From: Chloroflexota bacterium
Lineage (GTDB): Bacteria > Chloroflexota > UBA11872
DNA: 64,000 bases
Assembly: GCA_965263075.1 (NCBI GenBank)
Contig: CBDHGI010000006.1
Span: 402,929-466,928 of the forward strand
Direction of reading: 5' to 3'
Below are positions 35,200-62,252 of this stretch, in pieces. The translations under genes and the position numbers were made by a program. The notes under the pieces are model-generated. The model ran no database searches and was not told where the DNA came from. It saw only the letters and a list, made by a program, of their open reading frames with translations. The number at the start of each line of letters is the position of its first letter. The first letter of the stretch is position 1.

Positions 35200-36138
35200 C
35201 TACCGGAGGTCGGCGGCGAGGTGGTGGAGGGCGGTCTTGAGTGCGGTGTCGGGTGGGTGCCAGTGGGTGGGGAGTTGGTGGCGGAACCAGGTGCGTTGGC
35301 GGCGGGCGTATTGGCGGGTGCGGATGGTGGTGCGTTCGATGGCCTCGGACAATGTGAGCTGGCCGTCGAGGTGGGCCAGCGTTTCGGCGTAGCCGACGCC
35401 GGTCAGGGCCGGGAGGGTGCGGTCGTAGCCCTGATCGCGGAGCCGGCGGGCTTCGTCGAGGAGGCCGTTCTGGAACATGTGCGCGGTGCGCTGGGCGATG
35501 CGGTCGGCCAGCGTTGCGGGTTCGACTTCCAAGCCGAGGACATAAGCCGGGATGGGACGAGTGGCCGAGGGCTGGCTTTCGGGCGCGGTCTCGTGGCGCC
35601 GGGACTCTGCGATTTCCAGGGCACGGATCAGGCGGCGGGGGTTGTTGAGGTCGATGGAGGCGGCACGGTCGGGGGCAATTTCGCGCAGGCGGTCGATCAG
35701 GAGTTCAGGTCCCTCGGCTTGGAGTTGGCACGTCAGGCGTTGGCGTAGCTCGGGATCGGGCGGTGTCGCGCCGAGCGGGGAGCCGGTGAGCAGGGCCTGG
35801 ATGTAGAAGCCGGTGCCGCCGACGAGGACCGGAATGGCTCGCCGTGACCTGATTGCATTGATTGCCGTGCGTGCGATGCGGGCAAAGCGGTGAGCGCTGA
35901 ATGATTGGTCAGGGTCGATTATGTCAACTAGGTGATGGGGTAGACGCCGCCGCTCGGCCCGCGTGGGTTTGGCCGTGCCCACGTCCAGGCCTCGGTAGAC
36001 CTGCCGGGAGTCGGCGGAGATGACTTCGATGGACGCGTGTTCGGTCAGCTCCAGGGTAAGGCTGGTTTTGCCGGTGGCGGTGGGTCCGGCGATGACGAGG
36101 AGCGGCGGACGTTGGACGTCCTGAGTTACGTGCAGCAA
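35200..36138 (-). CDS. miaA: tRNA dimethylallyltransferase (tRNA delta(2)-isopentenylpyrophosphate transferase)
   Basis: LLVIAGPTATGKTSLTLELTEHASIEVISADSRQVYRGLDVGTAKPT (P-loop and MiaA signature). 312 aa, intact. Confidence 0.9.
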   Translation of the reverse strand: MLHVTQDVQRPPLLVIAGPTATGKTSLTLELTEHASIEVISADSRQVYRGLDVGTAKPTRAERRRLPHHLVDIIDPDQSFSAHRFARIARTAINAIRSRRAIPVLVGGTGFYIQALLTGSPLGATPPDPELRQRLTCQLQAEGPELLIDRLREIAPDRAASIDLNNPRRLIRALEIAESRRHETAPESQPSATRPIPAYVLGLEVEPATLADRIAQRTAHMFQNGLLDEARRLRDQGYDRTLPALTGVGYAETLAHLDGQLTLSEAIERTTIRTRQYARRQRTWFRHQLPTHWHPPDTALKTALHHLAADLR

Positions 36139-39300: not shown

Positions 39301-40908
39301 CCACGTAGCAGTCCCATCTCGGTTGGCGTCGACTTTCAGTGCCGGATACTGATTTAGTCGACCAAAGTCCCAGACATCGTCAACGCCGGTGTCGCGATTG
39401 TCATCCGCGTCTGCGTTGTCGACGTCCAGCTGCCAGTTCTCGAATGGGCCGCTGTAGTCGGTGGTACCCTGAAGCACAGAGGTTGGAACGCTGCGACTGC
39501 TGGACGGATTACCCTCACCAACATCGTTCAATTGACCCGAGACGTGAGTATCCCAGACGCTATCCAGGACAACCACTGTCTCCCAATCACTATACGGTAC
39601 GTTTCTTCCTATCAGAGCACCGACAATGCCGTTGCTTTCGACGTGACCGACACCGAAGGTGGCTCGCACGGTACCAGCCTCGTTTGATCCGATAATACCG
39701 CCGACAATCGTACCGCCCGAGACGTTGCCAAGGGCGTACGCTGCGATTATGTCACCAATGTTCATCCCGACCAGACCGCCGGCAGAGTCAATCCTATCCC
39801 GCACCGATCCCGCGGCGTAGCTTACCGTTACGACGCCGCTGTTGGAACCGATCAGGCCACCGATGTCCTCTGCTCCGACGATCCGTCCGGTCGCGTAGCT
39901 CTTAGAAATGTTCCCATCATTCGCACCAACCAAGCCGCCAGCCTGCCAGATTCCCAGCACATTTCCGCTAGCGTAGCTCTCGACAATGTCCCCGTGATTG
40001 CCCCCTATCAGTCCCCCACAGCGACTATCGGCGCAGGCTACACTGCCTGTAGCGTAGCTGCTTGCGACGCTACCCCGGCTGAAGCCGACCAGAGCTCCAA
40101 TTTCGTACTCTCCGGAAGCGCCGCCGTTCGCATGACTGCCCAGGATCGAACCATAGTTGGTTCCGACAAGACTGCCAATCTGGGACCAGCCGAGTACCCG
40201 TGCCGACGACCGACTATCTTGAATGACACCGTGGTTCTCTCCGACGAGACCTCCAATCTGGTCGATTCCGTCGACATTTCCGGAGGCGTGGCTGCGCTCA
40301 ATCATCCCCCGGCTGTAGCCGGCCAGGGCTCCGACCAATCTGAAGCCTGTGACGTCCGCCTTCAGGTCATCTACTCGCGCGACAACTGCCGTGCTATCCA
40401 AATAGCCAAAGAGTCCTACTGGTCGCGGATCAACGCTCTCTTCAAGCCGAAGAATGTAGAGGTTGGAGACGACGTGCTCGTTGCCCTCGAACGTTGCCGC
40501 AAAGGGACTGACTTCCGTGCCGATAGGCGTCCATCCCTCACCGGTTCTCCACGCTCTGTTCGTCGCGCTTGACGCGTAGCTATCCGGGTCGGAGAAATCC
40601 AAATCTCTGGCCAGTTCATATCCCTGGCACGTGGGTGTGCATGCAACCCGTAACGAGGTCTGCGAAAAGGCCCTGTAAAAAGCTTCCTCGGCACGAGACC
40701 CGTCGGGCTTTCCGTCGCCATTGAGATCATTTCGAATGGCGTCGAACTGTTCGAGATTATTGATCTCAATGAGACCGTCGTCATCCAGATCGTGATCGCC
40801 GCTGACCGCTCGGACAGTGGTGGCAGCGCTGCAAGCCAGAACAGCGAAGAGCATGACGAGCCATAGCAAGTTTGACACCAGCGGAGTGCTGGCCCGGCTC
40901 GGAATCAT
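36310..40908 (-). CDS. Giant secreted repeat protein (about 1532 aa mature-length ORF). It has a signal peptide and three tandem ~470-aa units, each with a DxDxDGLIE(V/I)xNLEQ calcium-loop-like motif, a GYELTR/ATFEGNxH block, 8-10 GLUG-like (GGLVGxNxGxI..SYATGxVSG) beta-helix repeats and a DFWDFG..QYP.LK.DFDGDG..W.EFG terminal block. Function unknown; candidate adhesin or surface-layer component.
   Basis: ORF track 36310..41139. The first 77 codons are Arg-rich without homology, and the ATG at 40906-40908 gives the classic signal peptide MIPSRASTPLVSNLLWLVMLFAVLACSA. The internal triplication is visible in the protein (DHDLDDDGLIEINNLEQ / DKDADGLIEVSNLEQ / DTDSDGLIEVSNLEQ). Confidence 0.85.
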   Translation of the reverse strand: MIPSRASTPLVSNLLWLVMLFAVLACSAATTVRAVSGDHDLDDDGLIEINNLEQFDAIRNDLNGDGKPDGSRAEEAFYRAFSQTSLRVACTPTCQGYELARDLDFSDPDSYASSATNRAWRTGEGWTPIGTEVSPFAATFEGNEHVVSNLYILRLEESVDPRPVGLFGYLDSTAVVARVDDLKADVTGFRLVGALAGYSRGMIERSHASGNVDGIDQIGGLVGENHGVIQDSRSSARVLGWSQIGSLVGTNYGSILGSHANGGASGEYEIGALVGFSRGSVASSYATGSVACADSRCGGLIGGNHGDIVESYASGNVLGIWQAGGLVGANDGNISKSYATGRIVGAEDIGGLIGSNSGVVTVSYAAGSVRDRIDSAGGLVGMNIGDIIAAYALGNVSGGTIVGGIIGSNEAGTVRATFGVGHVESNGIVGALIGRNVPYSDWETVVVLDSVWDTHVSGQLNDVGEGNPSSSRSVPTSVLQGTTDYSGPFENWQLDVDNADADDNRDTGVDDVWDFGRLNQYPALKVDANRDGTATWEEFGPQGRIAGIQRDNGNYDKDADGLIEVSNLEQLAAMGMDRAGNGRPDYPAVRKPFYAAFPIKDNEEVCDFCFGYELTRSLDFADPSSYATGVVNADWRSGIGWQPEDLGYFRSPATFDGNEHVISNLYVKVTDLDDRTNEASGLFAHVQEDSVIRNIGVINVDITGGNNVGGLAATNEGDVFNSYTTGRVSGKNNVGGLVGTNRRLIRFSHSATETSGESRIGGLVGWNTEGWRGQKASVTASFATANVTGGSEVGGLVGRNEEGHVAFTYAKGPVAGRSRVGGLVGVNAAGNDPSNVTASYATGDVSGHEAAGGIAGANSGSIIASFATGSVSGSVVVGGLVGDNSMPWVDRWDEGGPGTVIASYAAAFVSGETSVGGLTGRNPGRLILSFWDIDVSGQSNGTGDGNVPTNSGKTTAELQSPAGFTGVFSAWNIDLDNADGDYTLETGAGDFWDFGTSQQYPVLKAEFDGDGVATWQEFGEQGREPSSTAPSAAPPDTPAPVTTPVATVPASQSLDTDSDGLIEVSNLEQLNAVRFDLDGNGIPDGAGDKAYASAFPAAETNPCSGCNGYELTRPLDFQDLESYSYGVVNPLWTRGSGWLPIGVGSSETSFSATFEGNGHTIRSLFVNRTTFLEDAGAAGLFGFTGSSAVIRGIGLNDVLVTGLASVGSLVGENRGIISHSYATGLVSGTTHVGGLVGYNQDSENAIQGWQIESSYAEVDVKGTDYVGGLIGLLYGTLHATYASGIVAGDEVVGGLVGGNGGKVRASYATGQVTGRESVGGLVGYNFDTIDSSYANTEVSGGETVGGLVGNNGYDVLVSYSMGSVSGQRHVGGLVGWNGGSQRPAVIIDSYTTAYVVGDDLVGGLVGVNLSAVINSLWDTQATGQSVGFGRNEPTNAAHFPRRWWDGNVQIVGKTGSELQEPTDYAGIYAPWRHSVGPGIPIFAYPMAAELTDVWDFGSASQYPSLTVDFDGDGQASWEEFGTQIRNNGQSQR

Positions 40909-41610
40909 GGCCGCCCAACTGTCAGGGTTCAAATTGGGGTATCCCGGGTGACCACGCAAGGGCCGATTCCCTGGTCCAAGAACTGTGGCGGCGTCCCGCC
41001 AGGCGCGTGGGCCCGCCGTGGCCAGTTGTGACTTTCGAGCCGTGGCGCCGGCAGCTCGCCGGCCGGGGAAATTCGTCCAGGCAGCCGCACGCGTAGAGGT
41101 ACGCATGGGGTGGCTCTGCCGGTTGCCACGGCTCGACACGCCTGAAATCTGCGTCGAGGCTCAACACGCCAGCGGCCTCGCTTCGCCCGGGCTAGCATGA
41201 GCCCAATGTGCCAAGTGTGCGTGGCTTGATGCAGCACCTGCGTCACGTTTCCCTCTGGCGCGCCAGAGACTACGAAGAGACGTACATGGTATTCGGCGAG
41301 AACGTAGAGTTTTGCATACAGCCATTCCGATATGGAGTGCTGGGCGACACAGCTAGCTGCTCGTGCCCGGGCAACTGTTGGTCCCAGTAGACGGCGGCGG
41401 CGCGCGCCAGGCTTTGTTTGAACGATTAGATATCTACTCGGCGGTCCGTCTCTCGGTATCGAGCGCGCCCGGAGTCGTATTGGTCGGGAAGGCTGTCTGG
41501 CAAGAATTGCCACTACTGTTCTCGCCATCCAAGCTGTGTCCCCTCTCACCGCGACGGCACGCGCAGGCTTGGAGACCAACGGCGATTACGGCCGAGGGTC
41601 GAATGGGGCA

Positions 41611-42396
41611 TCAGCGAGAGGCGGCTAAGCCCAAGATCTCGAGTTGCCCTTGCGAAGCCGACTCTCGGCTGCGGCGAGGCTTGGGCACGGACCCGACCGA
41701 CCTCGGCTGCCCCGTCCAACCGTGGATCAAGTGAGATTTCGGTTTACCTGTAGGTATCACGACCGTGGGGATGCGCTTCCAACGGGTGTGCAGGCTTGAT
41801 CGCCAACTGTCCCCCTTCGCCGCGGAGGGTAATGCGAACCATGCGCTCGGTGCGTTGGGCGATGCGCTTGGCCAATGTCGCGGGTTCGACCTGCAGGCCG
41901 AGGATGTAGGCCGGGATGGACCGGTTGGTTGCGGGCTGGTGGCGTTGGGATTCGGCGATTTCGAGGGCGCGGATGAGGCGGCTGCGTGTTCGGGGTCGGG
42001 CGGCGTGGCGCCGAGCGGGGAGGCTGTGAGCAGCGCCTTGATGTAGAAGCCGGTGCCGCCGACGACAAGCGGGATGGCCCGCCGCGCCCGGATCTCGTCG
42101 ATCGCGGCGTGCGCTATGCGTACAAAGCGGTGTGCGTTGAAGACCTGGTCGGGGTTGATTATGTCAATGAGGTGGTGTGGCGCACGTCGCCGCTCGGCCG
42201 GCGTGGGCTTGGCCGTGCCGATGTCCAGTCCGCGATAGACCTGCCGGGAGTCGGCGGAGATGACTTCGATCGGCAGATGCTCCGCGAGCTCGAGCGCCAG
42301 GCTGGTCCTGCCGCTGGCGGTGGGTCCGCCGATAACGAGCAGTGGCCGCTCAGGCATTGCCGCGGGCTCCTCGCGATACCATGGGCGACGCCCCAA
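41611..42396 (-). pseudogene. miaA remnant, copy 3. The N-terminal ~125 codons are intact, then a ~100-nt internal deletion/frameshift, and the C-terminus is missing.
   Basis: MPERPLLVIGGPTASGRTSLALELAEHLPIEVISADSRQVYRGLDIGTAKPT ... GATPPDPE, then the frame changes. DNA 41760-42010 aligns to 35480-35830 of the intact miaA with a deletion. The antisense peptide GGVAPSGE is shared. Confidence 0.65.
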
Positions 42397-42421
42397 CCTT
42401 CACGCAGGGTCCCTTGCGCGC

Positions 42422-43426
42422 ATGACCCAGGCCGAACCCGACGACGCGCCCGTCGCGACATCCGCGGGTCCGTACAGCAACCTGCAGGCGGTGTTGGAGG
42501 CCGGTGAGTTTGCGGTTACCTGCGAGCTGGGTCCGCCGCGGGCGCCGGACGCGGCCGACGTGCTGAAGAAGGTCGGGATCATCCGTGGATACGTGGATGC
42601 GGCCAGTTGCACCGATAACCAAGGCGCGGCGCTGAAGATGGCCAACTGGGGCGCGGCGCTGCTGTGCCTCCAGGGCGGGGTGGAGCCGATCATGCAGCTT
42701 TCCTGCCGCGACCGGAACCGGCTGGCCATCCAATCCGACGTGATTGCGGCGCAAGCGTTCGGCGTGCGTAATTTTATGTCAATCAGCGGCGATTCCCTGG
42801 TGCTTGGCGATCATCCCATGGCCAAGCCGGTATTCGATCTACAGGGTGTGCAACTTGTGCGTCTGCTGCGCCGGCTGCGTGACGAAGGCCGAACGGCCGC
42901 CGGCGATCCGATAGCAGGCGAGTTTGGCTATTTGATTGGCGGCGCGGCCAATCCCTTCGCGCCGCCCTACGGCTGGCGTCCGCTGCGTCTGCTGAAGAAG
43001 GCCGAGGCGGGCCAGGAGTTCGCCCTGACGCAGATGATCTTCAACGTGGACCGCTTTGCCGACTGGATGTCATACGTGCGCGACGAAGGTCTGGATAAAC
43101 GTGTGCACATCTTCGCGGGCGTGGGACCGCTGAAGTCCGCCCGCATGGCCGAATTCATGAAGTTCAAGATCGCGGGCATGGAAGTGCCGGACGCCGTGGT
43201 GGAACGGATGCGGGCGGCCAAGAAGCCGCGCACCGAGGGCGTGAAGATTTGCCTGGAGATTATCGAGCAGGTGCGTGAGATTCCGGGCGTGCACGGGATT
43301 CACATCATGGCCATCGACTGGGAACGGGCCGTCCCGCGCATCGTGAAAGCGGCCGGCTTGAAGCTGCCCAGGCCCGTTCCCGAACCGTCGCTGGCGCCTG
43401 GGCTGCCCGCGGCGGCTATTGCCTGA
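42422..43426 (+). CDS. metF: 5,10-methylenetetrahydrofolate reductase (MetF family)
   Basis: FAVTCELGPP ... SCTDNQGA ... MQLSCRDRNRLA ... FNVDRF blocks. The likely ATG at 42422 (MTQAEPDD) gives 334 aa. The ORF track starts at 42260. Confidence 0.8.
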   Translation: MTQAEPDDAPVATSAGPYSNLQAVLEAGEFAVTCELGPPRAPDAADVLKKVGIIRGYVDAASCTDNQGAALKMANWGAALLCLQGGVEPIMQLSCRDRNRLAIQSDVIAAQAFGVRNFMSISGDSLVLGDHPMAKPVFDLQGVQLVRLLRRLRDEGRTAAGDPIAGEFGYLIGGAANPFAPPYGWRPLRLLKKAEAGQEFALTQMIFNVDRFADWMSYVRDEGLDKRVHIFAGVGPLKSARMAEFMKFKIAGMEVPDAVVERMRAAKKPRTEGVKICLEIIEQVREIPGVHGIHIMAIDWERAVPRIVKAAGLKLPRPVPEPSLAPGLPAAAIA

Positions 43427-44060
43427 CGTGGAGGCGTCCACCGGCGACTCGCTGGCCGAGTTTCTGGACGCCCTGGGCTCCTCACAACCCACGCCGGGCG
43501 GCGGAGCGGGCGCGGCGGTGGCGCTGGGGATGGGAGCGGCGCTGGTTGGCATGACGGCGCGGCTGACGACAGGACGCCGCCGGTTTCGGGCGGTGCAGGC
43601 GGACATGGAACGGGTGATCGAGCGCTGCGACACGATTCGGGCGTCGGCGCTGGAACTGGCCGCGGCGGACGCCGCGGCCTATGGGGACGTGATGGCGGCG
43701 TACGCGCTGTCGCGTGGAACCGAGGCCGAGCGGCGCGCGCGTCGCACGACGATTGCCCGCGCCGCCGAGCACGCAAGCCGGGTTCCACTACAGGTTGCAG
43801 GCACCGCCGCCAAGGTGATCGAGCTAGCCGCGGAGACCGCCACGAAGGGCAACCCCAGCGTGATCAGCGACGCCGGGGCCGGGGCAGCGCTGGCGCGCAC
43901 GGCGATCCGAATCAGCGAGATGAATGTGCAGGCGAATCTGGGGTCGATCGACGACGCAGCGATTCGCGCCGAACTGGCGGCGGAACTGGACGAAGCCCGA
44001 GCGGCGCGCGACGCGGCGGACAACGTGGTTGATGCCGTGCTGAGTCAGAGTTCGGCATGA
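43419..44060 (+). CDS. fchA: Methenyltetrahydrofolate cyclohydrolase / formiminotransferase-cyclodeaminase C-domain family protein (FchA-like)
   Basis: LGSSQPTPGGGAGAAVALGMGAALVGM signature of the FTCD_C/cyclodeaminase family. 213 aa. Confidence 0.7.
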   Translation: MPDVEASTGDSLAEFLDALGSSQPTPGGGAGAAVALGMGAALVGMTARLTTGRRRFRAVQADMERVIERCDTIRASALELAAADAAAYGDVMAAYALSRGTEAERRARRTTIARAAEHASRVPLQVAGTAAKVIELAAETATKGNPSVISDAGAGAALARTAIRISEMNVQANLGSIDDAAIRAELAAELDEARAARDAADNVVDAVLSQSSA

Positions 44061-44920
44061 GTCGAGCGGAAGTCTGGTCGGGCCGCGGGCCGGCGCGGGC
44101 GCTACGGGCAGCCGTACAGGCACGTGTCGAGGCACTCGCCGATGCCGGTCCACTCGCGCTGCACATGATTCGGGTCGGGGACGACCCGTCGGCAAGGGGA
44201 TACGCCCGGGCCGTACAGCGCGCGTGCAATCGCGTGGGCGTGCGGGCGGCGATGGGCAACTTGCCTGCCGACTCCTCAACCGGCTCTGTGGTGGACCACG
44301 TGAAGGCGTTGAACGCGGACGGCGGCGTGCACGGCATCCTGTTGGGGTTTCCGCTGGCGGCACATCTGGACGTGGCTGCGATCGCCGACGCCATCGACCC
44401 GGCGAAGGACGTGGACCGGGTAACCACGGCTGCGATCGGCGAATTGTTTGCCGGTCGTACGCAGCTTGGACCGGCCACGGCGGCAGCGGTTATCGCGCTA
44501 CTGGACTTCTACGAGGAGCCAATTGCCGGCCGCGAGGTCGTGGTGGTTGGACGCAGCAACGTGGTGGGCAAACCACTGTGGGCCATGCTGCTGGCTCGTA
44601 ACGCAACAACGACGGTGTGTCATTCACGCACCGTCGATCTTCCGGCGGTGACTTCGCAGGCTGAGATCCTGGTGGTGGCCACGGGTAGCCCCGGCCTGAT
44701 TGGGGCGGAACACGTCGGCCCGGACGCTGTGGTCGTTGACGTCGGCACGACGTACCAAAACGGCAAGGTGGTGGGCGATGTGGACTTTGAAGCCGTCGCC
44801 GCGCGCGCCCGCGCGGTTACGCCCGTGCCGGGCGGGATCGGCCCGATTACGAACTACTGCCTAATGCGCAACCTCGTGGAGCTTGTCGAATGCCGCCACC
44901 AGTCACCGGAGACCGCATGA
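44057..44920 (+). CDS. folD: Bifunctional 5,10-methylene-THF dehydrogenase / 5,10-methenyl-THF cyclohydrolase
   Basis: VVVVGRSNVVGKPLWAMLL ... PVPGGIGPIT blocks. Overlaps neighbours by 4 nt on both sides. Confidence 0.85.
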   Translation: MSRAEVWSGRGPARALRAAVQARVEALADAGPLALHMIRVGDDPSARGYARAVQRACNRVGVRAAMGNLPADSSTGSVVDHVKALNADGGVHGILLGFPLAAHLDVAAIADAIDPAKDVDRVTTAAIGELFAGRTQLGPATAAAVIALLDFYEEPIAGREVVVVGRSNVVGKPLWAMLLARNATTTVCHSRTVDLPAVTSQAEILVVATGSPGLIGAEHVGPDAVVVDVGTTYQNGKVVGDVDFEAVAARARAVTPVPGGIGPITNYCLMRNLVELVECRHQSPETA

Positions 44921-46599
44921 GCCCCTCGCAACCGCCGGACATCGAAATCGCGCAAAGCGCCGCTCTGAAGCCGATCGAGGAGGTCGCGGCCAGCCTTGAG
45001 CTTGCCGCCGACGAGATCGATCCGTATGGGCGGACCAAGGCCAAGATCACGAGGGCCGCCATCGATGCGCGGCGCGCCGTGCCGGACGGCGATCTGATCC
45101 TGGTTACAGCCATCACCCCGACGCCGGCCGGGGAAGGCAAGACCACGACCACGATCGGGCTGACGCAGGCGTTGCAGCGGCTGGGTCACCGAGCGATCAG
45201 CGCCACGCGGGAACCGTCGCTGGGTCCAGTGTTTGGCGTGAAGGGCGGGGCGGCGGGCGGCGGCTACGCGCAGGTGCTGCCGATGGAGGACATCAACCTG
45301 CATTTCACCGGCGACTTCGCGGCGATCAGCGCGGCGCACAACCTGCTGGCGGCGATGCTGGACAACCATCTGCACCAGGGGAACGCGCTGGGGATCGACG
45401 CGCGTCGGGTGCTGTGGCGGCGCGTCATCGACATGAACGATCGCGCGCTGCACAGCATGGTCATCGGCCTGGGCGGACGCACGCGCGGGGTGCCTCGGGA
45501 GTCGGGGTTCGACATCACGCCGGCCTCGGAAGTGATGGCGGTGCTGTGCCTGGCGCACGATCTAGCTGATCTGAAAGCCCGCTTTGCGCGGATTGCGGTA
45601 GCCGAGCGCAAGCCCGGTGACTACGTGACCGCAGCCGATCTGACCGCGCATCCGGCGATGGCGATCCTGATGCGCGAGGCGGTGCTTCCCAACCTGGTGC
45701 AGAATCTGGAGGGCGGCCCGGCGCTAATCCATGGCGGCCCGTTCGGCAACATTGCGCACGGCTGCAATTCCCTGATTGCCACGCAACTGGCGTTGAAGCT
45801 GGCCGACCTGGTGGTGACGGAAGCCGGCTTTGGGGCCGACCTGGGCGCCGAGAAGTTCTTCAATATCAAGTGTCCGGCGGGGGGGCTGCGCCCGCGGGTG
45901 GCGGTGCTGGTGGCGACGGTTCGGGCACTGAAGCTGCACGGCGGTGCGAACAGGCGCGACCTGGCCAGCGAGGATCTCGACGCGTTGCGTGCGGGCAGGC
46001 CCAACCTGGCAGCGCACTCGGAAAACCTGCGGAAGTTCGGCGTGCCCGTGGTGATTGCCGTGAATCGTTTTCCGACAGACACCGATGCCGAGGTTGATGC
46101 GGTGATGGCGGCGGCAGAGCAGCTCGGCGCGCCGGCGGCGGTGTCGACCGTCTTCAGCGACGGCGGCGCGGGCGGCGAAGACCTGGCGCGGAAGGTCGTG
46201 GCGACGCTGGAGGCGGGCGAGGACGACTTCAAGCCGTTGTACGAGCCGGCGGCGTCGTTGACCGAGAAGATCGAGACGGTCGCGCGCGAGATCTATGGCG
46301 CCGACGGGGTGGATTACGCGGCGGGCGTGGCGCGACGGTTGCGTCGGCTGGACCGCGGCGCGGCGCGGGGATTCCCGATCTGCATGGCCAAGACGCAGTA
46401 CTCGCTGTCGGACAATCCGGCGTTGCTGGGTCGCCCGAGCGGCTTCCGCGTTACCGTCCGCGACGTACGCCTGTCGGCCGGCGCGGGCTTCGTAGTGCCG
46501 CTGACGGGCGACATATTGACCATGCCGGGGCTGCCGCGGCGGCCGTTTGCCGAGGACATGGACGTGGCTCAAGACGGGACGATTTCGGGCCTGGCGTAG
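44917..46599 (+). CDS. fhs: Formate--tetrahydrofolate ligase
   Basis: TPTPAGEGKTTTTIGL P-loop and FDITPASEVMA / GGPFGNIAHG blocks. The ATG at 44917 overlaps the folD stop (ATGA). Confidence 0.9.
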   Translation: MSPSQPPDIEIAQSAALKPIEEVAASLELAADEIDPYGRTKAKITRAAIDARRAVPDGDLILVTAITPTPAGEGKTTTTIGLTQALQRLGHRAISATREPSLGPVFGVKGGAAGGGYAQVLPMEDINLHFTGDFAAISAAHNLLAAMLDNHLHQGNALGIDARRVLWRRVIDMNDRALHSMVIGLGGRTRGVPRESGFDITPASEVMAVLCLAHDLADLKARFARIAVAERKPGDYVTAADLTAHPAMAILMREAVLPNLVQNLEGGPALIHGGPFGNIAHGCNSLIATQLALKLADLVVTEAGFGADLGAEKFFNIKCPAGGLRPRVAVLVATVRALKLHGGANRRDLASEDLDALRAGRPNLAAHSENLRKFGVPVVIAVNRFPTDTDAEVDAVMAAAEQLGAPAAVSTVFSDGGAGGEDLARKVVATLEAGEDDFKPLYEPAASLTEKIETVAREIYGADGVDYAAGVARRLRRLDRGAARGFPICMAKTQYSLSDNPALLGRPSGFRVTVRDVRLSAGAGFVVPLTGDILTMPGLPRRPFAEDMDVAQDGTISGLA

Positions 46600-48554: not shown

Positions 48555-49142
48555 CTACGCGTCCCCGGCTGGCGAAGGCCCCGGCCGGACTTCATCGACC
48601 GCCCAATACAGCGCGGCCAGGATCATCAGCGGGTCGAGGATCTGCCAGATGGTTCCGCTCTGGAGAAAATTGGCGTTGACCAAGTCGATGGCGCCAAACG
48701 CGATCGCCAGCACCGAGCCGACGCGATATGCCGTCCCACCACGCTGCCAAAGGGTGAGCGCCCCAGCAACGCTGAAGCCCACGACCAAGGCGTGAATGCT
48801 CTCCCAGACGGTTTGGGTGTTGTCGCCGAACGGCGAGGCCGAGAAGTCGGAGGAGTGGTCGCCGTAGGTGTTGACGAACACGACGACGGCAAAGCCCGTA
48901 AGGATGAGTGCCCACGCGGATGGGACATTGCGCGTGTTGCGCCATATCCACCAGACGCCGGGTACGGCGATCAACAGCGCGGCGAATTGCCAGATCTTCC
49001 AACCCCAGCTGTCGACGTTGAGCCGGGTTTCGGAAACCACGGTGCCGGCATCGATCCAGGCATAGAGCATGGCCGCCACAACGGCCGCCGCGGCCAGGGA
49101 ACCGGCAACACCAAGATTCTGTCGTTCAAGCCAGCACTTCAT
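48555..49142 (-). CDS. 4-TM membrane protein of unknown family (paralog A of three)
   Basis: Shares conserved blocks with the two neighbouring genes: WxWxxWQxxALLxAxPGxWWxW, VFVNTYGD, FINAxFxxxGTIWxxLDPL. Likely start MKCWLE at 49142, 4 nt after the paralog B stop. Confidence 0.6.
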   Translation of the reverse strand: MKCWLERQNLGVAGSLAAAAVVAAMLYAWIDAGTVVSETRLNVDSWGWKIWQFAALLIAVPGVWWIWRNTRNVPSAWALILTGFAVVVFVNTYGDHSSDFSASPFGDNTQTVWESIHALVVGFSVAGALTLWQRGGTAYRVGSVLAIAFGAIDLVNANFLQSGTIWQILDPLMILAALYWAVDEVRPGPSPAGDA

Positions 49143-49146
49143 CGAC

Positions 49147-49725
49147 CTACCCTCCCATCTCCTCGCGGCGCTGCGCGCGTCTCGCGAGCGCCGCACCGGA
49201 CCACACCAACAAGGTCAGAATCCGCAAGGGATCCAGGGCGTCCCAGATCGTGCCGTTGTTGACGAAATAGGCGTTGATGAACAGGACGACACCCTGTGCG
49301 CCCACGAAGAAGGCCAGGATCCGTGCGTTCAGGTCTCCCCGTGCCCAAAGCACCGGAACGGCAATGAGCGTGCAGCCAAGAAAGATTGGATTGGTTGCTT
49401 TCCAAACGTCGCCGACGTGGCCGTCGAAGAATCCGTTGCCGTAAACGTTGAGAAAGACGGCAAGAGCGAGCACCCCCAACGCCGCGCCACGCGTCCAGAC
49501 CACTCGCCGGGTCCCGAGCCACAGCCACCAGACGCCCGGAATGCCCATGAGCAACGCGCCGACCTGCCAGAGCCGCCAGGCCCAGTTGTCGGTGGACGCC
49601 AGGCCCTCTCGGCTGAACATGTCGGTTGAGGCGCCCCAGGCGAAGAGCGCGACGAAGAGGATGGCGGCGCTGAGCAGGGCTTCGGCGGCGCCCAAGTCAC
49701 GAGGGCGAATCGGATTACGCATCAC
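49147..49725 (-). CDS. 4-TM membrane protein of unknown family (paralog B)
   Basis: Same conserved blocks (WAWRLWQVGALLMGIPGVWWLW; VFLNVYGNGF; FINAYFVNNGTIWDALDPL). Confidence 0.6.
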   Translation of the reverse strand: MMRNPIRPRDLGAAEALLSAAILFVALFAWGASTDMFSREGLASTDNWAWRLWQVGALLMGIPGVWWLWLGTRRVVWTRGAALGVLALAVFLNVYGNGFFDGHVGDVWKATNPIFLGCTLIAVPVLWARGDLNARILAFFVGAQGVVLFINAYFVNNGTIWDALDPLRILTLLVWSGAALARRAQRREEMGG

Positions 49726-49801
49726 TCTCCCTCCTCATTGGGCCGTTCACGCTATCGCCGGCAGCAGATCTGAATCAGCGGACTGCTGACAAAGTTTGCT
49801 G

Positions 49802-50371
49802 TCAATCACTTCCCGCCGGCGCGCCGACCGTGGGGCTGAGCGCGGCGGCGGCCCAGATGAGTGTGAGCAGCATCATCACCGGGTCAAGGGCGCTCCAGAG
49901 GGTCTCGTTGTTGACGAACAGATTGTTGATGAACACCAGAATGCCGGTGACTGCGGAGATGACGGTTACGACCCGGCCGCTGGCACAACCGCAACGCCAT
50001 AGCGAGTAGCCCGCGACGGCGGAGAGGGCAATGACCAGGCCGTTGATGACTTCCCAGACGGTGCCCAGGTGGTCGCCGAAGATCTCCTCGGTGTAGGTGT
50101 TGAGAAAGATGACCAGGGCGAGAACAACCATCGCCAGGGTTCGGACACGGGGTTGGCTTTGGCCGTTGGTCCAGAACCAGCAGGCGCCGGCGGCGGCGAT
50201 GACGAGGGTGCCGATCTGCCACAGCTGCCAGCGCCAGTTTTCGCTGCCGACGCGATCGGGATCGACGACGATCGATTGCTGGTTCCAGGCGAAGAGCGCG
50301 ACGACGATGAATGCGGCCCCTATGAGGAGCTCGATGGCGCTCAGGTTTCGGCGTTGGAACAAGTACTGCAT
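49802..50371 (-). CDS. 4-TM membrane protein of unknown family (paralog C)
   Basis: Same blocks (WRWQLWQIGTLVIAAAGACWFW; IFLNTYTEEIFGDH; FINNLFVNNETLWSALDPV). Confidence 0.6.
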   Translation of the reverse strand: MQYLFQRRNLSAIELLIGAAFIVVALFAWNQQSIVVDPDRVGSENWRWQLWQIGTLVIAAAGACWFWTNGQSQPRVRTLAMVVLALVIFLNTYTEEIFGDHLGTVWEVINGLVIALSAVAGYSLWRCGCASGRVVTVISAVTGILVFINNLFVNNETLWSALDPVMMLLTLIWAAAALSPTVGAPAGSD

Positions 50372-57920: not shown

Positions 57921-58328
57921 GGGCTCACGCTCCGCGTCGTGGCGTGGGGTCGTTCTTCGAAGCGTACCCCGGAATCCGCGCCCAGACCAGAACGCGCCGG
58001 GCGGCCTGCGAAAGGCGTCGGCGCGGATCCAGGCCCTGCAGCCGACCGGAAGAGTATTGGAAGCTAGCGAGGGGTACGAGCGCACGGCTTCCTGGCCAAG
58101 ACCGATGCGCTGGACGCCCAGCTCCTGGACCGCTTCGTAAGCGATGTGCCATCCCGAAAGCCATCTGTCCAGCCCGGCGGTGGATCGCCTGCAGGGCATA
58201 AGCCTGCGGCGTCAACTGGTGGGGCTGCGGGTGGCCGATCCGAACCGGCCCCACCACCACACGCGCCCGACGCCAGCCGCGTCTACCGCGGCTGGCGTCG
58301 GAACTGGACGGGGCGCGCTTGGCCAGCG

Positions 58329-58988
58329 CTACATCATCATGTCCATCATCGACATCTTGTTGATCTCGTCTTCCGAGATCCCGATGCCGTAGAGCACGCC
58401 GGCGTCGGTTCCCGCCAGGAACTCCTTCTCGGTACCTCGACCGATCACGTCAGCCGCGATGCGGTACGGCAGGCCCATAGTCATGTCCATGTCCTGGTCC
58501 ATGTCCATGTCCTGATCCATGTCCATGTCCTGATCCATGTCCATGTCCTGATCCATGTCCATGTCCTGATCCATGTCCATGTCCTGGTCCATGTCCGAAT
58601 CCGTGTCCATGTCCGAGTCCATGTCCATGTCCATGTCCGAATCCATGCCCATGCCCATGCCCATGTCCATGTCCATCGAGGCAGCTATACGCGCTTTGGC
58701 CACGGCGACGATGCGGTGGTAGTAGTGGAGATCCTTGTTGTGTTCTTCGATCCACTTAGCCTCGGCATCGGCGCCATAAACGGCGCGATAGGCGGACTGC
58801 ACATCAGCCGACTGGTCTTCAAGCCGCTGGCCGTCTGTGGCGGCCGGATGCATATCCGCCAGTGCCGGAGCCAGTGTTGTGAGGGCCAATGCACTCACGA
58901 GGATCAGAAGCATCAGCACACGCAATGGTGCGGGCAGAGAGATTGAACGAAGCACGGGAACGTGCCTTTCGTTAGAGTGACCCGCCAT
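58329..58988 (-). CDS. Exported Met/Asp-rich repeat protein. It has a signal peptide, an ~80-aa N-domain, an (Asp-Met)-rich tract MDMDMGMGMGMDSDMDMDMDSDMDTDSDMDQDMDMDQDMDMDQDMDMDQDMDMDQDMDM, and a C-terminal MSMMDMMM. Candidate Cu(I)/Ag(I) ligand or methionine oxidant sink.
   Basis: Minus-strand reading uses GC-preferred codons (GAC, CAG, ATG) across the repeat. The plus-strand reading is (HVHVLI)n, encoded only by CAT-His. Signal peptide MAGHSNERHVPVLRSISLPAPLRVLMLLILVSALALTTLAPALA. The start is uncertain: ATG at 58988, or the internal ATG of MLLILV. Confidence 0.65.
   Translation of the reverse strand: MAGHSNERHVPVLRSISLPAPLRVLMLLILVSALALTTLAPALADMHPAATDGQRLEDQSADVQSAYRAVYGADAEAKWIEEHNKDLHYYHRIVAVAKARIAASMDMDMGMGMGMDSDMDMDMDSDMDTDSDMDQDMDMDQDMDMDQDMDMDQDMDMDQDMDMDQDMDMTMGLPYRIAADVIGRGTEKEFLAGTDAGVLYGIGISEDEINKMSMMDMMM
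58478..58678. repeat. 18-nt tandem DNA repeat (catgtccatgtcctgatc, about 5 perfect plus degenerate flanking copies) encoding the DQDMDM repeats
   Basis: Read directly from lines 58441-58680. Confidence 0.9.
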
Positions 58989-59341
58989 CGTGACGGGCGA
59001 AGTCTGCCGACAGTCTTCTACGGATCCGTATGATCCGTCAAATTCGCATGGTGGACGGTAGACAACTCCGGTGTCCGTGCCGCCCGGCCTTTCGACAGCC
59101 TGAGGGATGACAACTGGCCTTGTGCGGCACCGGTGCCTGACACGACTCCACCCGGTTGCCGAGGACCGCGAAACCATGTTGACCGGCCTCATGACCAGGG
59201 AGCCTTACGGGATTGTTAGGCGCTGGGGCGGGGGCGGGAGCTACCCGGTTCCGTTTACCTCGGGCATGGGGGTGGGGCGGACAATGGATTGCCGCTCGCC
59301 GATTGCGCGGGGACAAGCTTCGCAGGAAGGACGGAGGGATT

Positions 59342-59473
59342 ATGCGAAAGTCCAATTTGGACGAGCGCGGGCACGATCACGGCGGCATGGTCGATCTCAG
59401 CCGTCCATCCAGTAGTCCCGAATCTCGATCTGGACGCGGGCTGTGGGGGCGCCGCATGCGCTTGCCGGTGTAA
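59342..59473 (+). CDS. Hypothetical 44-aa peptide (MRKSNLDERGHDHGGMVDLSRPSSSPESRSGRGLWGRRMRLPV) with a strong ribosome-binding site
   Basis: GGAGGG 3 nt upstream of the ATG at 59342. Lies in the divergent region between the Met/Asp-rich gene and the molybdoenzyme gene. Not in the ORF track as such (it is embedded in the 59213..59473 ORF). Confidence 0.35.
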   Translation: MRKSNLDERGHDHGGMVDLSRPSSSPESRSGRGLWGRRMRLPV

Positions 59474-59801
59474 ACGCAGGCTTGCGGTCCGTCCATTTGC
59501 TGGCGGCCACCAGTCACGCTGCGCTCCGCGAGCGCTGGGATGGCGCGCCGCGCCGACCGTGGGATCGCTTCCACAAATTGGCCCGAGCTGATCGAACACG
59601 CCATAGAATGGCGTGCGGATGTTGAGAGGTCGGTTGCCTGTGTTTTCGCAGGCTGATGCCGTGCATTGACCGGGCGTTGGGATACGGAGAGGATCCTGCC
59701 CGCAACAAGCTGAGCATCGACGACATGCGGCGGACTTGGCACCCGGTCCGGCCACATGCGCCTCTGAATATATGCGAGCACTGTGCGCCTAGGAGGAACG
59801 G

Positions 59802-61892
59802 ATGGCTGACGAAAGCGACGGGCGGCTGGTCCCAAATTTGAACTCCCTGGCACGAGGCGGTCTGGCAGGGCTCTTGTCCGGGCTGCTGACTGTGGGTGTG
59901 AGCGAACTGTACGCGGGAATCTTCGGTGGTTTGCCGTCGCTCCTCGTCTCCATGAGCGGCCGGATCGTCGACCTGAGTCCGCGGGCCATGGAAGAGTTCG
60001 CTATTAGCGTATTCGGCACCAGCGACAAGCTTGCCCTCGTCATCTTTCTTGTGGTGCTCAGCGGAATATTCGGCGCCACCCTCGGCGTCGTGGCACTGCG
60101 GTCTCGACCGGCGGCGGTGGCGGGATTTGCGGCATTCGGAATCCTGGCAGGTCTGGCGAACGCAGTCGACGCCCAATCAACGCCGGCCCATGCGGCGGCC
60201 GCGGCTGCAGTTTCGGTGGCGGCGGCGGTGGCGGCGCTCTTGTGGCTCATCCGCATGACCCGGGAGCCGACGCGTGCCACTGAGGCGGCGTCGGCCATCC
60301 AGATGCAGCGACAGCGACGGCTCTTTCTTGGCACAGCCACGCTAGTTGCCGCGACCTCAGTCGTTACCGGTGTCTTAGGACGCAATTTGATCGAGCGCGC
60401 CAAGGTGGGCGTCGCCAATCGCGAGGATGTGGTGCTGCCTGCCGTACGCAGCCGCGCGGCGGTGACGCTCCCGACGCCGGCGGCCAGCACCGCCGAGACG
60501 CTCGCGCCTCCGGCACCGCCGACGGTCGCGGCGATCCCGACGCCCAGCTCCATAGCGCCCCCCACGCCCGCGGCGACCCCGTCGCCCGTCACGACAGCGT
60601 CTCCCACGCCCGTGACCGTGGCCAGCGCCGCCGAGACGGCCACGCCCACGGCACCTCCGACGGTCGTGGCGACCCACTCTCCCACGCCCGAGTCGACGCC
60701 GGAGCCCACGCCCGAGCCCACGCCGGAATCGACGCCGGAATCGACGCCGGAGCCCACACCCCAGCCAACGCCCGTGACCGTGGCCAGCGCCGCCGAGACG
60801 GCCGCGCCTACGGCACCTCCGACGGTCGCGGCGACACCGCCACCCACGCCCGAGCCGACGCCGGAGCCCACGCCCGAGCCCACGCCTGAGCCCACGCCCG
60901 AGCCGACGCCCGAGCCCACGCCTGAGCTGACGCCCGAGCCGACGCCGGAGCCGACGCCGGAGCCAGCCCGGCCGCTGACGACGACGACAGTTGGCGTGGA
61001 CGGGATGCCGCCGCTCGTCACGCCCAACAACGACTTCTACCGCATTGACACCGCGTTCTCGATTCCACGCGTGGACGTCAATGACTGGCGGCTCAACATC
61101 ACGGGCCTGGTGGAGCGTCCCTACAGCATTTCCTTCGCCGAGCTGCTCGGGCTCTCGGTCTTTGAGGAATTCATAACGCTGTGCTGCGTCTCCAACGAAG
61201 TGGGCGGAGAACTGATCGGCAATGCCACGTGGCAGGGGGTGCCGATATGGCACCTGGTTAATCATGCCGGGGTGAAGAGTGAAGCCACCCAAATCGTTGG
61301 ACGGTCCGTTGACGGCTTTACGGTCGGGTTTCCGCGCGATGTGGCGTTCGATGGACGTCCGGCGCTGGTCGCCGTGGGCATGAACGGCGAGCCGCTACCG
61401 TTCGAGCACGGCTTTCCGGCGCGCATGATTGTGTCAGGCCTCTATGGCTATGTGTCCGCCACGAAGTGGCTGCAGGAAATTGAACTCACAACCTGGGAAG
61501 GGTTCAACGGCTACTGGATCCCGCGAGGGTGGTCCAAGCAAGGTCCCGTCAAGACGCAATCCCGGATCGACGTTCCCAGGCCCTCATCGACGGGTATCAA
61601 GCCTGGCTTGCAGGCCATTGCCGGTGTGGCGTGGGCGCAGAACCGCGGCATCAGCAATGTGGAGGTGCAGATCGACGGCGGCGACTGGAATGAAGCAAGG
61701 CTCGCCTTGCCGATCAGCCAGCACACCTGGGTGCAGTGGCTGTCGGAGTGGGAGGCCACCCCGGGCCCGCACGTTGCCAGGGTGCGCGCGACCGACGCCA
61801 ACGGCGAGCTGCAAGCCGAGGGTCCCAGGCCACCAGCGCCGAACGGCGCCGAGGGCTGGCATCAAATCAACTTCCAGGTCGCTGACCAGTGA
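59802..61892 (+). CDS. Sulfite-oxidase-family molybdopterin oxidoreductase with an N-terminal ~150-aa 4-TM domain, an internal Tat-like motif (QRRLFLGTATLVAATSVV), a Pro/Thr/Glu-rich (PTPE)n linker, a Mo-binding domain and a C-terminal Ig-like dimerisation-type domain
   Basis: AGGAGG 6 nt upstream of the ATG at 59802. Mo-domain blocks PLVTPNNDFYRID, W.L.I.GLVERP.SISFAEL and CVSNEVGG. An internal in-frame ATG at 60255 gives MTREPTRATEAASAIQMQRQRRLFLG, which looks like a stand-alone Tat signal. Confidence 0.75.
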   Translation: MADESDGRLVPNLNSLARGGLAGLLSGLLTVGVSELYAGIFGGLPSLLVSMSGRIVDLSPRAMEEFAISVFGTSDKLALVIFLVVLSGIFGATLGVVALRSRPAAVAGFAAFGILAGLANAVDAQSTPAHAAAAAAVSVAAAVAALLWLIRMTREPTRATEAASAIQMQRQRRLFLGTATLVAATSVVTGVLGRNLIERAKVGVANREDVVLPAVRSRAAVTLPTPAASTAETLAPPAPPTVAAIPTPSSIAPPTPAATPSPVTTASPTPVTVASAAETATPTAPPTVVATHSPTPESTPEPTPEPTPESTPESTPEPTPQPTPVTVASAAETAAPTAPPTVAATPPPTPEPTPEPTPEPTPEPTPEPTPEPTPELTPEPTPEPTPEPARPLTTTTVGVDGMPPLVTPNNDFYRIDTAFSIPRVDVNDWRLNITGLVERPYSISFAELLGLSVFEEFITLCCVSNEVGGELIGNATWQGVPIWHLVNHAGVKSEATQIVGRSVDGFTVGFPRDVAFDGRPALVAVGMNGEPLPFEHGFPARMIVSGLYGYVSATKWLQEIELTTWEGFNGYWIPRGWSKQGPVKTQSRIDVPRPSSTGIKPGLQAIAGVAWAQNRGISNVEVQIDGGDWNEARLALPISQHTWVQWLSEWEATPGPHVARVRATDANGELQAEGPRPPAPNGAEGWHQINFQVADQ
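60590..60962. repeat. Nested coding tandem repeats: 2 x ~190-nt unit (PVTVASAAETA.PTAPPTV.AT) each followed by a 12-nt (ccc acg ccc gag = PTPE) array, about 20 copies in total
   Basis: Read directly, for example 60841-60960 acgcccgagccgacgccggagcccacgcccgagcccacgcctgagcccacgcccgagccgacg... Confidence 0.85.
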
Positions 61893-62252
61893 GCGCCGCC
61901 GTGCGAAACCACGTTGGCGGCGGCGCTCCGCACGGCTCTGACGTAAATGGACGGCGCCTCCTCGGCACGTAAGACCACGCGGCGCCCTCGAGCGCGAGGG
62001 TGAGCCTTGGTCAACGCGCGCGAAGCGTCGGAACGCCGGCGGAAACCAGGGCGCGGCGCACTTGGTTGGGCAGGCGATGGGGCGGCAGTGAGTCGTGGAC
62101 AGTTGAGCGTGGGATCCGGGTGTTGGGCGGAGGGATGGGGATCGGAGGTGGCCGGTTCGGGCATGGGGGCGGTGGAGGGCAGCAGATGGATTCCCGCTTC
62201 CCGCCTGCGCGGGGACAGGCTTGGCGGAAAGACGGGATCGGGGCGGAGGTGC

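Follow-up and report, generated by a model that had tools for sequence, protein, structure and literature searches.

We analyzed a 64,000-bp stretch of contig CBDHGI010000006.1 from a Chloroflexota bacterium (GenBank assembly GCA_965263075.1), hereafter called the window, and focused on two genes that lie back to back in it. The minus-strand gene encodes a small secreted protein with a long tract of methionine and aspartate residues, which we call the DM protein, and the plus-strand gene encodes a membrane-anchored molybdoenzyme of the sulfite oxidase (SO) fold, which we call the Mo enzyme (Table 1). The neighbors of the pair in the window are rseP, ispG, an ADH gene and others. The same divergent pair was found at all ten loci that carry a DM gene (the window, L001–L006 and L087–L089), with a Mo orthologue of 684–728 aa at each of them.

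The DM precursor is 208 aa long and comprises a 33-aa Sec signal peptide (predicted cleavage between ALA and DMH) and a 175-aa mature chain that is 17.7 % Met and 22.3 % Asp. Its open reading frame (ORF) runs from the hydrophobic signal peptide through a conserved part of ~60 aa, the 68-aa tract and a second conserved part of ~40 aa to the tail KMSMMDMMM. The alignment of the ten loci placed the start codon at GTG 58955, where GTG, TTG and ATG share one column, and a GAAAGG Shine-Dalgarno (SD) sequence conserved over the same loci lies 9 nt upstream. We rejected two other candidate starts in favor of this one: ATG 58988, a misleading codon that is not conserved and falls in the loop/stem of the conserved hairpin of the 5' untranslated region (5'-UTR) at 58981–58997, and ATG 59192, which lies further upstream still. 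Given the start at GTG 58955, the divergent spacer between the DM gene and the Mo gene measures 846 bp. The divergent layout proposed in the first-pass annotation of this DNA stood (10 of 10 loci), but the spacer size that it gave had to be revised.

Four frames are open across the repetitive part of the gene, and the DM frame alone joins a signal peptide to flanks that are kept in ~25 homologues. GC content at third codon positions (GC3) in this frame was 0.77 overall and 0.87 in the repeat, a value typical of the genome (the GC content of the window is ~65 %). In the repeat region, four of the five other frames had GC3 values of 0.20–0.59; the plus-strand MSMS frame reached 0.86 and is interrupted by stops. 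The antisense and alternative frames (HVHV, GHGH, MSMS) were ruled out by GC3 or internal stops, and by missing context. We also scanned 965 kb, comprising the window and the fetched loci, for Met-dense ORFs (25 % Met or more within 40 aa). Those passing the threshold belonged to the DM family or were antisense readings of its members; one further, borderline ORF, which closes locus L031, is rich in Ser/Thr/Pro and looks spurious. The Met density of the DM protein is not due to chance. NCBIfam models of MSCRAMM SD-repeat adhesins also matched the DM protein, at ~30 bits against cut-offs of at least 999 bits, and we dismissed these hits as low-complexity artefacts. The first-pass annotation had described an exported minus-strand protein with a (DQDMDM)x5 Asp/Met tract and a Met-rich tail; the signal peptide, the tandem repeat and GC3 bore this out, and GC3 and the conserved flanks showed that its choice of frame and strand was correct.

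The tract, SMDMDMGMGMGMDSDMDMDMDSDMDTDSDMDQDMDM(DQDMDM)x5...TMG (also written MDMDMGMGMGMDSDMDMDMDSDMDTDSDMDQDMDM(DQDMDM)x5TMG), is 35 % Met and 43 % Asp, and His, Cys and aromatic residues are all absent. At the DNA level it consists of an 18-bp repeat in 10.7 copies (58482–58674, Tandem Repeats Finder, TRF). A word-indexed search of 5.8 billion proteins returned the ~25 homologues, all from metagenomes or metagenome-assembled genomes labelled Chloroflexi or Chloroflexota, and none of them has a Pfam domain. The flanks of the tract contain 43 invariant columns among 19 aligned sequences. The tract itself ranges from 14 to 68 aa across the family, while Met stays at 32–40 % and Asp at 27–47 %. 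Besides Met, the tracts are made up of Asp, Gly, Ser, Lys or Gln. Their units differ between members (DQDMDM, MGDDMS/K, DKDKGM), and in some members Lys makes up as much as 16 % of the tract, replacing Asp. His, Cys and aromatic residues are absent from the tracts throughout the family, and 50–75 % of the tract Met stands in M-x-M register. Relatives with near-identical flanks differ strongly in tract length, and several database versions of the protein (P0002, P0011–P0014) shift inside the repeat into GHGHG or TWTWIR frames. The spread of lengths and the frame shifts within the repeat fit replication slippage and/or assembly error.

The AlphaFold2 (AF2) model of the DM protein was of low confidence, with a predicted local distance difference test (pLDDT) score of 51 that fell below 50 for residues 62–127. 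It contains a helical hairpin (residues 17–66), short C-terminal helices and a disordered tract. The tract is therefore predicted to be disordered. Because its sequence and length drift while Met holds at 32–40 %, and given that Lys can stand in for Asp and that His and Cys are lacking, the family comparison points to selection for exposed, soluble Met and not for a fixed metal site.

The conserved flanks of the tract proved to belong to a wider group of secreted proteins. An exhaustive profile search with this scaffold returned 164 representatives at E ≤ 1e-3, many of them 430–560 aa long. In these, a signal peptide precedes the same ~120-aa domain, whose two flanks directly adjoin each other, and the domain is followed by a Gly/Ser/Pro linker and by He_PIG 'putative Ig' repeats. 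The Met/Asp tract is absent from these paralogues. Because the flanks are contiguous in the He_PIG-type relatives, the DM tract is an insert that separates 'IVAVAKAR' from 'LPYRIAADVI', in a protein that has lost the Ig repeats. The wider family (P0149–P0168, P0186; L093–L095) is unannotated. Its members share the ~120-aa N-terminal domain, which is not in Pfam, and usually add the He_PIG Ig-like repeats; many have Met-rich loops. Such loops follow 'HNAAIG' in some scaffold members (MSMMDDMMMGDMSMDD), and P0186 ends in a (MMDDD)x9 tail. After cleavage as predicted by the −3,−1 rule, seven of nine diverse scaffold members would begin with X-X-His (DMH, DSH, DGH, QGH, TGH, SGH), and this sequence, Asp-Met-His in the DM protein, would constitute a motif like the amino-terminal Cu(II)- and Ni(II)-binding (ATCUN) site. 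No Mo enzyme neighbors the scaffold at three He_PIG paralogue loci, and a metagenome scan for scaffold relatives found three distant soil loci only, none of the three with a Mo enzyme nearby.

These features bear on the main rival to the interpretation that we develop below, namely that the DM protein is primarily an extracytoplasmic buffer or chaperone for copper (Cu(I)/Cu(II), or Ag) and that the Mo enzyme is linked to it indirectly, for example because copper has to be kept off its dithiolene cofactor, or not functionally. In such a protein the MxM motifs with adjacent Asp would bind Cu(I) and the X-X-His N-terminus Cu(II). The substrate copper site of CueO (Cu5) is made of two Met and two Asp (Met2Asp2), and Met-rich domains recruit Cu(I) (PMC11494321). 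The dominance of MxM spacing in the tract, the conservation of the X-X-His termini in the wider scaffold family, and the Met/Asp loops or tails of other members such as P0186 all agree with a role in copper binding. The DM protein also resembles the CueO insert, PcoE/SilE and CopM in having an exported, flexible, Met-dense segment of MxM/MxxM type. However, it shares no Pfam or NCBIfam homology with them, its tract lacks the His found in PcoE, SilE and CopM, and in some members Lys takes the place of Asp. We found no copper ATPase, multicopper oxidase, CopC/D, CusF or copper regulator in the window neighborhood or at the ten loci; the DM protein stands alone, and its partner is a Mo enzyme instead of a multicopper oxidase or efflux system. 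Moreover, the ATCUN-like N-terminus also occurs in He_PIG paralogues that have no Mo neighbor, so that it does not explain the pairing, and the strict linkage to the Mo enzyme, which persists when the pair changes genomic position, would be left without explanation. We therefore judged a primary role in copper handling rather unlikely.

The Mo enzyme consists of a membrane domain, a long tether and a catalytic part. Twin arginines (R172–R173, 60315–60320, motif QRRLFLG) stand directly before the fifth transmembrane (TM) segment, TM5, which is the least hydrophobic of the five (mean Kyte-Doolittle value 1.17) and is followed by R/K/R. Residues R172, R173 and F175 (RRxF) are invariant in the family, and AF2 modelled the helices of the membrane domain with pLDDT values of 66–84. 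This pattern fits dual Sec/Tat insertion with the C-terminus outside the cell, and both the DM protein and the domain that binds the molybdenum cofactor (Moco) are predicted to be extracytoplasmic. In polytopic Moco proteins of the Sco3746 type, dual Sec/Tat insertion was shown experimentally, with the Moco domain outside (Tooke et al. 2017, PMC5449189). That layout was reported in Actinobacteria, Firmicutes, Chloroflexi and Euryarchaeota (PMC5449189). Our enzyme shares this layout: five TM segments, of which the weakly hydrophobic TM5 has twin arginines directly before it and positive charges behind it, and a C-terminal Moco domain. By contrast, the conserved His residues in TM2–4 of Sco3746, which are predicted to bind two b hemes, are absent here, and neither a long Pro/Thr tether nor a Met-rich partner was described there. 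No invariant or near-invariant His occurs in the TM region (alignment columns 1–200 of 15 diverse homologues), and because no TM histidine is conserved, a b-heme relay in the Mo enzyme is unlikely.

The tether is made of tandem repeats with TRF periods of 12, 24, 36 and 162 bp. These are nested at 60606–60964 (+), where a 162-bp unit is repeated 1.9 times at 89 % identity, together with 12/24/36-bp TPEP units, and tether length varies among the orthologues (proteins of 684–728 aa). A long tether is found only in the DM-linked group; it is ~80 aa in a group of Mo enzymes with ~75 % identity and absent in the rest of the family. That family is very large, with at least 8000 database clusters at E < 1e-20 from Actinobacteria, Acidimicrobiia and Chloroflexota, and its typical members are 510–525 aa long, without a tether.

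We compared the catalytic part with known members of the SO superfamily. The PF00174 match covered residues 420–572 (E 6e-39). NCBIfam models of sulfite-oxidizing enzymes scored far under their cut-offs (SoxC 109.5 bits against 420, SorA 108.8 against 600, SorT 76.7 against 570; E ~1e-31 for SoxC and SorA), and the MsrP model NF003767 reached 35.4 bits against a cut-off of 207. When the family profile was compared with PDB sequences, SorA matched at 1e-37, SoxC at 1e-26, SorT and animal/plant SUOX at ~1e-21, nitrate reductase at 2e-9 and YedY/MsrP (1xdq) at 1e-5. The match extends through the dimerization domain, to residue 350 of SorA and residue 466 of chicken SUOX. The first-pass annotation had called a membrane-anchored molybdoenzyme of the SO fold with a dimerization domain, and the PF00174 match and the SorA/SUOX alignment agree with this call. 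Its suggestion of an enzyme like MsrP/YedY was not upheld, since the MsrP model stayed at 35 bits against 207 and YedY matched at 1e-5 against 1e-37 for SorA. By sequence, the Mo enzyme is much nearer to SorA/SUOX than to MsrP, yet it appears to be neither a canonical sulfite dehydrogenase nor an MsrP.

The active site differs from that of the sulfite oxidizers at the positions that matter for the anion. The Mo-ligand cysteine is retained (Cys462, 61185–61187, opposite SorA Cys104), whereas SorA Arg55, His57 and Tyr236 are replaced by Ile415, Thr417 and Trp577, and the CSGNSRG loop after the Mo-Cys is deleted relative to SorA. The variant chains 2ca3 and 2ca4, which carry R55M and H57A, served to verify the SorA positions. 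Cys462, Ile415, Thr417 and Trp577 did not vary among 15 homologues with identities as low as 50 %. Because of the three substitutions and the loop deletion, the cationic pocket for sulfite seems to have been lost. The replacement of Arg55, His57 and Tyr236 also makes a bona fide sulfite dehydrogenase unlikely, an alternative that would have counted against the first-pass annotation. A pocket lined with Ile, Thr and Trp would fit a neutral sulfoxide or thioether substrate. The enzyme thus shares with SorA, SoxC and SUOX the Moco domain, the Mo-ligand Cys and the C-terminal domain of dimerization type, but it differs from them in its low model scores (109 bits against 420–600), in its membrane anchor and in the lack of a cytochrome subunit or heme domain. 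No cytochrome c subunit or fused heme domain was found in the window or in nine of the ten loci. At L087 a gene for a 149-aa cytochrome c (2881–3330) lies convergent to the Mo gene, a situation seen in one of the ten loci; its product could be an electron partner.

The same data bear on the possibility that the Mo enzyme works oxidatively on a non-anionic substrate, such as a thioether (dimethyl sulfide or protein Met) or a compound of S, As or N, and passes the electrons to O2 or a soluble cytochrome. The DM protein would then be a Met shield against H2O2, or itself the substrate. The nearest solved relatives are indeed oxidases and dehydrogenases (SorA 1e-37, SoxC 1e-26, SUOX 1e-21) and we found no electron-donor module. 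The gene usually stands alone in the wider family of at least 8000 clusters, as would suit a self-sufficient, O2-linked enzyme, and L087 has its cytochrome c gene next to the Mo gene. Nevertheless, the enzyme has other residues at the three positions characteristic of sulfite oxidation, the cytochrome c neighbor is confined to one locus in ten, and a shield would require neither tight linkage nor a long tether. To our knowledge, the oxidation of protein Met by a Mo enzyme also has no precedent. For these reasons we regard an oxidative role as improbable.

The linkage of the two genes strongly indicates that their products act together. Eight of the ten loci lie between rseP and ispG. At L001 the pair sits among GH32 and recombinase genes, and at L087 beside the cytochrome c gene, a PIN/Phd toxin-antitoxin pair and an integrase fragment. 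The ispG genes of the syntenic loci are 97–99 % identical, indicating closely related genomes. The Mo orthologues beside the DM genes are 85–97 % identical, and their catalytic domains, where compared, 86–98 %. Both promoter-like regions and the ~200-nt leader of the Mo gene are kept in all three contexts, while the DM sequence diverges to ~64 %. We then asked whether the association is exclusive. Among 80 other Mo-enzyme genome loci (40–64 % identity), no Met-rich ORF lay within 6 kb apart from the spurious-looking ORF of L031, and there was no homologue of the scaffold. Neither a Met-rich neighbor nor a scaffold homologue was present at three loci of the paralogue/orthologue group with ~75 % identity, in which the Mo gene (with its ~80-aa tether) adjoins a DUF1761 gene instead. 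Across the wider Mo family, partner genes did not recur: of the 86 Mo-enzyme loci analyzed, at most 12 shared any one neighbor. A co-occurrence analysis had been proposed with the first-pass annotation, and its outcome favored the proposed pairing: the divergent pair was present at every DM locus, in three contexts, and absent at the 80 other Mo loci.

Two derived traits, the Met insert of the scaffold and the extended tether of the enzyme, thus occur in one and the same set of genomes only, and the two genes move together. The DM pair therefore suggests a lineage-specific, two-gene extracytoplasmic module of a small uncultured Chloroflexota clade, and we concluded that the two extracytoplasmic proteins very probably work together. 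It could be argued that the adjacency has no functional basis and that both genes are carried along on a small segment, mobile or prone to indels, within a single clade. Most of the loci are syntenic copies from close genomes, recombinase, integrase and toxin-antitoxin genes are found near the two copies outside this synteny, and dispersed repeats flank the Mo gene in the lineage of the window. However, the back-to-back layout, both promoter-like regions and the leader are kept in all three contexts despite the divergence of the DM protein (~64 %). That both products are extracytoplasmic, and that the long tether and the Met insert are derived and confined to exactly the same genomes, also speaks against mere co-transport, and we consider this explanation very doubtful.

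The divergent spacer contains several conserved elements in addition to the two start regions. The promoter-like element of the DM gene was missed by a consensus scan because of its 15-nt spacer. On the Mo side, the conserved region begins with the palindrome CGCCATAGAATGGCG at 59599–59613, which includes a −10-like hexamer (TAGAAT), and may represent a long leader or a region for regulator binding. An upstream ORF in this leader was rejected because of stop codons in L002, L006 and L087, and an RNA structure because of a covariation term of −0.08; an Rfam search of the spacer for a Moco or other riboswitch gave nothing beyond the GC hairpin. The perfect GC-rich hairpin behind the DM gene is likely a terminator or insulator before ispG. 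A shared operator of the form CGCCA-N3-5-TGGCG was also considered and rejected, because this motif is too common to be informative (4 occurrences against 0.9 expected) and the hairpin on the DM side of the window does not match it.

The first-pass annotation had included a 44-aa ORF with a strong SD in the module, and this part of the proposal had to be abandoned. The ORF is absent in L001, L002, L005 and L006 and reduced or truncated in three more loci. It sits in a ~400-bp segment that the window shares only with its two nearest relatives, L003 and L004, and of which L087 holds a relic, and its SD falls within the upstream copy of a dispersed ~80-bp repeat. The two direct copies of this repeat (59260–59334 and 62157–62235, +) are 79 % identical, flank the Mo gene and have the core ATGGATTSCCGCT..CCG..TGCGCGGGGACARGCTT; both are present in L003 and L004 and not in the other DM loci. 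A stretch like the 44-aa ORF (window 59361–59477) was also seen upstream of the Mo genes with ~75 % identity, at ~5606–5722 of L084–L086, between DUF1761 and the Mo gene. Because its DNA is better conserved than the peptide (73 % DNA identity vs 63 % aa identity), the comparison points to a non-coding region. This suggests an old non-coding element of these Mo genes that was lost from several DM-linked loci.

Table 1. Features of the DM–Mo locus (window coordinates).
Feature	Position	Strand	Evidence and remarks
Perfect 15-bp GC-rich hairpin, 28 bp downstream of DM stop	58267..58301	.	Stem in cmscan alignments
DM protein gene	58329..58955	-	Start aligned in 10 loci, conserved GAAAGG SD, ~25 homologues, GC3
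Met-rich C-terminal tail KMSMMDMMM	58332..58358	-	Every complete family member ends in a Met-rich tail
Met/Asp tract, mature residues 61-128 (68 aa), insertion between scaffold helices	58473..58676	-	TRF, family comparison, AF2
Scaffold N-terminal half, DMHPAATDGQRLEDQ...VAVAKARIAAS	58677..58856	-	Homologous to N-terminal domain of He_PIG surface proteins
5'-UTR hairpin/palindrome CCCGYCA-nnn-TGGCGGG, between DM promoter-like element and SD	58981..58997	-	Conserved in 10 loci
Putative DM promoter-like element: TTGACG (59031-59026), 15-nt spacer, TAGAAG (59010-59005)	59005..59031	-	Hexamers conserved in 10 loci
44-aa ORF (rejected as module part)	59342..59473	.	Found only in window, L003, L004
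Mo-gene leader/promoter region, ~200 nt, from palindrome to AGGAGG SD	59599..59801	+	Conserved in 10 loci
Membrane-tethered SO-clade molybdoenzyme gene, 696 aa	59802..61892	+	PF00174, NCBIfam and PDB searches
Membrane domain, five hydrophobic segments	59802..60452	+	Hydropathy and charge analysis, AF2
Pro/Thr/Ala/Glu-rich tether, ~175 aa, 33 % Pro, 23 % Thr	60453..60977	+	Composition, TRF
Moco-binding domain and SUOX-type C-terminal Ig-like (dimerization) domain	60978..61892	+	Alignment to SorA 44-350, chicken SUOX 128-466

Three further observations were made elsewhere in the window. A gene for a 1609-aa GLUG-motif protein (36310–41139, −) lies in a ~6-kb segment of low GC content (58 % vs 65 %), with a complete miaA (IPPT) gene and a second, truncated miaA-like N-terminal fragment on its two sides (35200–36138, 41611–42396); the segment seems to have been inserted into miaA or beside it. 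A folate one-carbon cluster (MTHFR-like, FolD, formate-tetrahydrofolate ligase) occupies 42260–46599 (+), and three ORFs of ~190–210 aa without a Pfam match lie at 48555–50371.

One of the closest known parallels to the DM–Mo pair is the MrpX system. MrpX of Azospira suillum, with 20 % Met and 44 % charged residues, carries a signal peptide, is oxidized by HOCl and is re-reduced by an enzyme of the YedY type (Melnyk et al. 2015, PMC4436054). Like the MrpX/YedY1 (MsrP)/YedZ1 system, which scavenges hypochlorite, the pair described here combines a small exported protein rich in Met and charged residues (20 % Met in MrpX; 17.7 % in the DM protein and 35 % in its tract) with a genetically linked, extracytoplasmic molybdoenzyme of the SO superfamily. 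The differences are nevertheless considerable. The enzyme studied here belongs by alignment to the SorA/SUOX clade and has a dimerization domain that YedY lacks; it carries its own five-TM anchor and no heme-b YedZ/MsrQ; the genes are divergent, with their own promoter-like regions and no SigF/NrsF or other sigma/anti-sigma pair nearby; the DM scaffold is shared with He_PIG surface proteins; and the host is a member of the Chloroflexota and not a proteobacterium. The MrpX logic invoked in the first-pass annotation thus carried over for the Met-rich exported protein, which resembles MrpX, but not for a heme domain like MsrQ or for SigF/NrsF.

A second parallel is offered by E. coli, where MsrPQ is induced by copper and repairs the Met ligands of the copper chaperone CusF (Vergnes et al. 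2022, PMC9302797). There, too, a Mo-dependent extracytoplasmic reductase keeps the Met of a copper protein reduced, and a similar arrangement here would reconcile an oxidant sink with copper binding. The E. coli link is regulatory (CusSR), however, and not a gene pair, and the enzyme clade differs. CusF is also a folded beta-barrel with a defined Met2His site, whereas the DM tract is predicted to be disordered.

On this basis we tentatively favor, at somewhat less than even chances, the interpretation that the DM protein and the Mo enzyme form a convergent Met-redox couple analogous to MrpX/MsrP, possibly one tied to copper. It builds on the export signals, the conservation of the family, the exclusive and repeated linkage and the loss of the residues typical of sulfite oxidation, which are all observed. 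We infer Met-sulfoxide as the substrate, and the direction of catalysis. The restriction of the long tether to the DM-linked group, the strict linkage and the substrate-like properties of the DM protein speak for such a couple. In this couple, the DM protein would be exported by Sec and would consist of a helical scaffold derived from He_PIG proteins, a disordered Met tract and a Met-rich tail. The Mo enzyme would be anchored by four TM helices of Sec type and a fifth inserted by Tat, with its catalytic domains held outside the cell on the ~175-aa tether. The exposed thioethers of the DM protein, which may hold Cu(I) at the same time, would react with oxidants to give Met-sulfoxide. The Mo domain on its tether would then remove the oxygen atom (Mo(IV) to Mo(VI)=O), regenerating the DM protein. 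Such a strategy would have arisen independently, with an SO-clade enzyme and an unrelated Met-rich protein.

Several points weigh against this interpretation. We know of no SO-clade enzyme with a dimerization domain that reduces Met-sulfoxide. The present enzyme, as judged from its alignments, is not of the MsrP/YedY clade, and its own clade is otherwise oxidative apart from nitrate reductase. The source of electrons is a further difficulty, as no donor could be identified: the membrane domain contains no conserved His, Cys or Met, it has no Ferric_reduct/MsrQ or other Pfam match, and no conserved redox partner gene lies beside the Mo enzyme, a gene of the YedZ/MsrQ type being absent from the ten loci. 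As eight of the ten loci share one syntenic context, they amount to only about three independent observations of linkage. The genes are divergent and do not form an operon, and a shared operator was not demonstrated. Lastly, AF2 modelled the Mo enzyme in full length with a pLDDT of 48 (below 50 in the catalytic domain), and this model was, like that of the DM protein, too poor for docking or for an active-site pocket.

The first-pass annotation regarded the combination as undescribed. We found no description of the DM–Mo pair in the searchable literature, and targeted literature searches returned no paper assigning a function to the five-TM family of the SO fold. The claim has to be narrowed in one respect, because the five-TM, twin-arginine Moco layout was already described (Tooke et al. 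2017). The enzyme clade, the heme-less fused anchor, the long tether and the scaffold of the Met/Asp protein all set the pair apart from MrpX/MsrP, which it resembles in its logic. The layout of anchor and twin arginines was already known, bar the missing heme-ligand histidines.

If the pair is a Met-sulfoxide couple, the strategy of MrpX/MsrP would have evolved twice, from different branches of the superfamily. Protein-Met repair or scavenging would then also reach monoderm envelopes, with a Mo enzyme working on a long tether and without a heme partner. If the DM protein is a copper buffer instead, it would represent a new scaffold for copper binding by Met and Asp. One may also speculate, although we think it unlikely, that the DM pairing reveals the substrate class of the whole orphan family of at least 8000 clusters, and that these heme-less enzymes with a five-TM anchor are the monoderm counterpart of MsrPQ, comprising surface-tethered reductases of protein Met-sulfoxide with a new electron route. 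The present clade would then have acquired the DM protein as a dedicated, fast-evolving 'redox and copper sponge', a rechargeable antioxidant outside the cell. In either case, the modest size of the two proteins would permit biochemical assays on them directly. The DM partner is the only strong genomic clue found here to the function of this very large orphan enzyme family.

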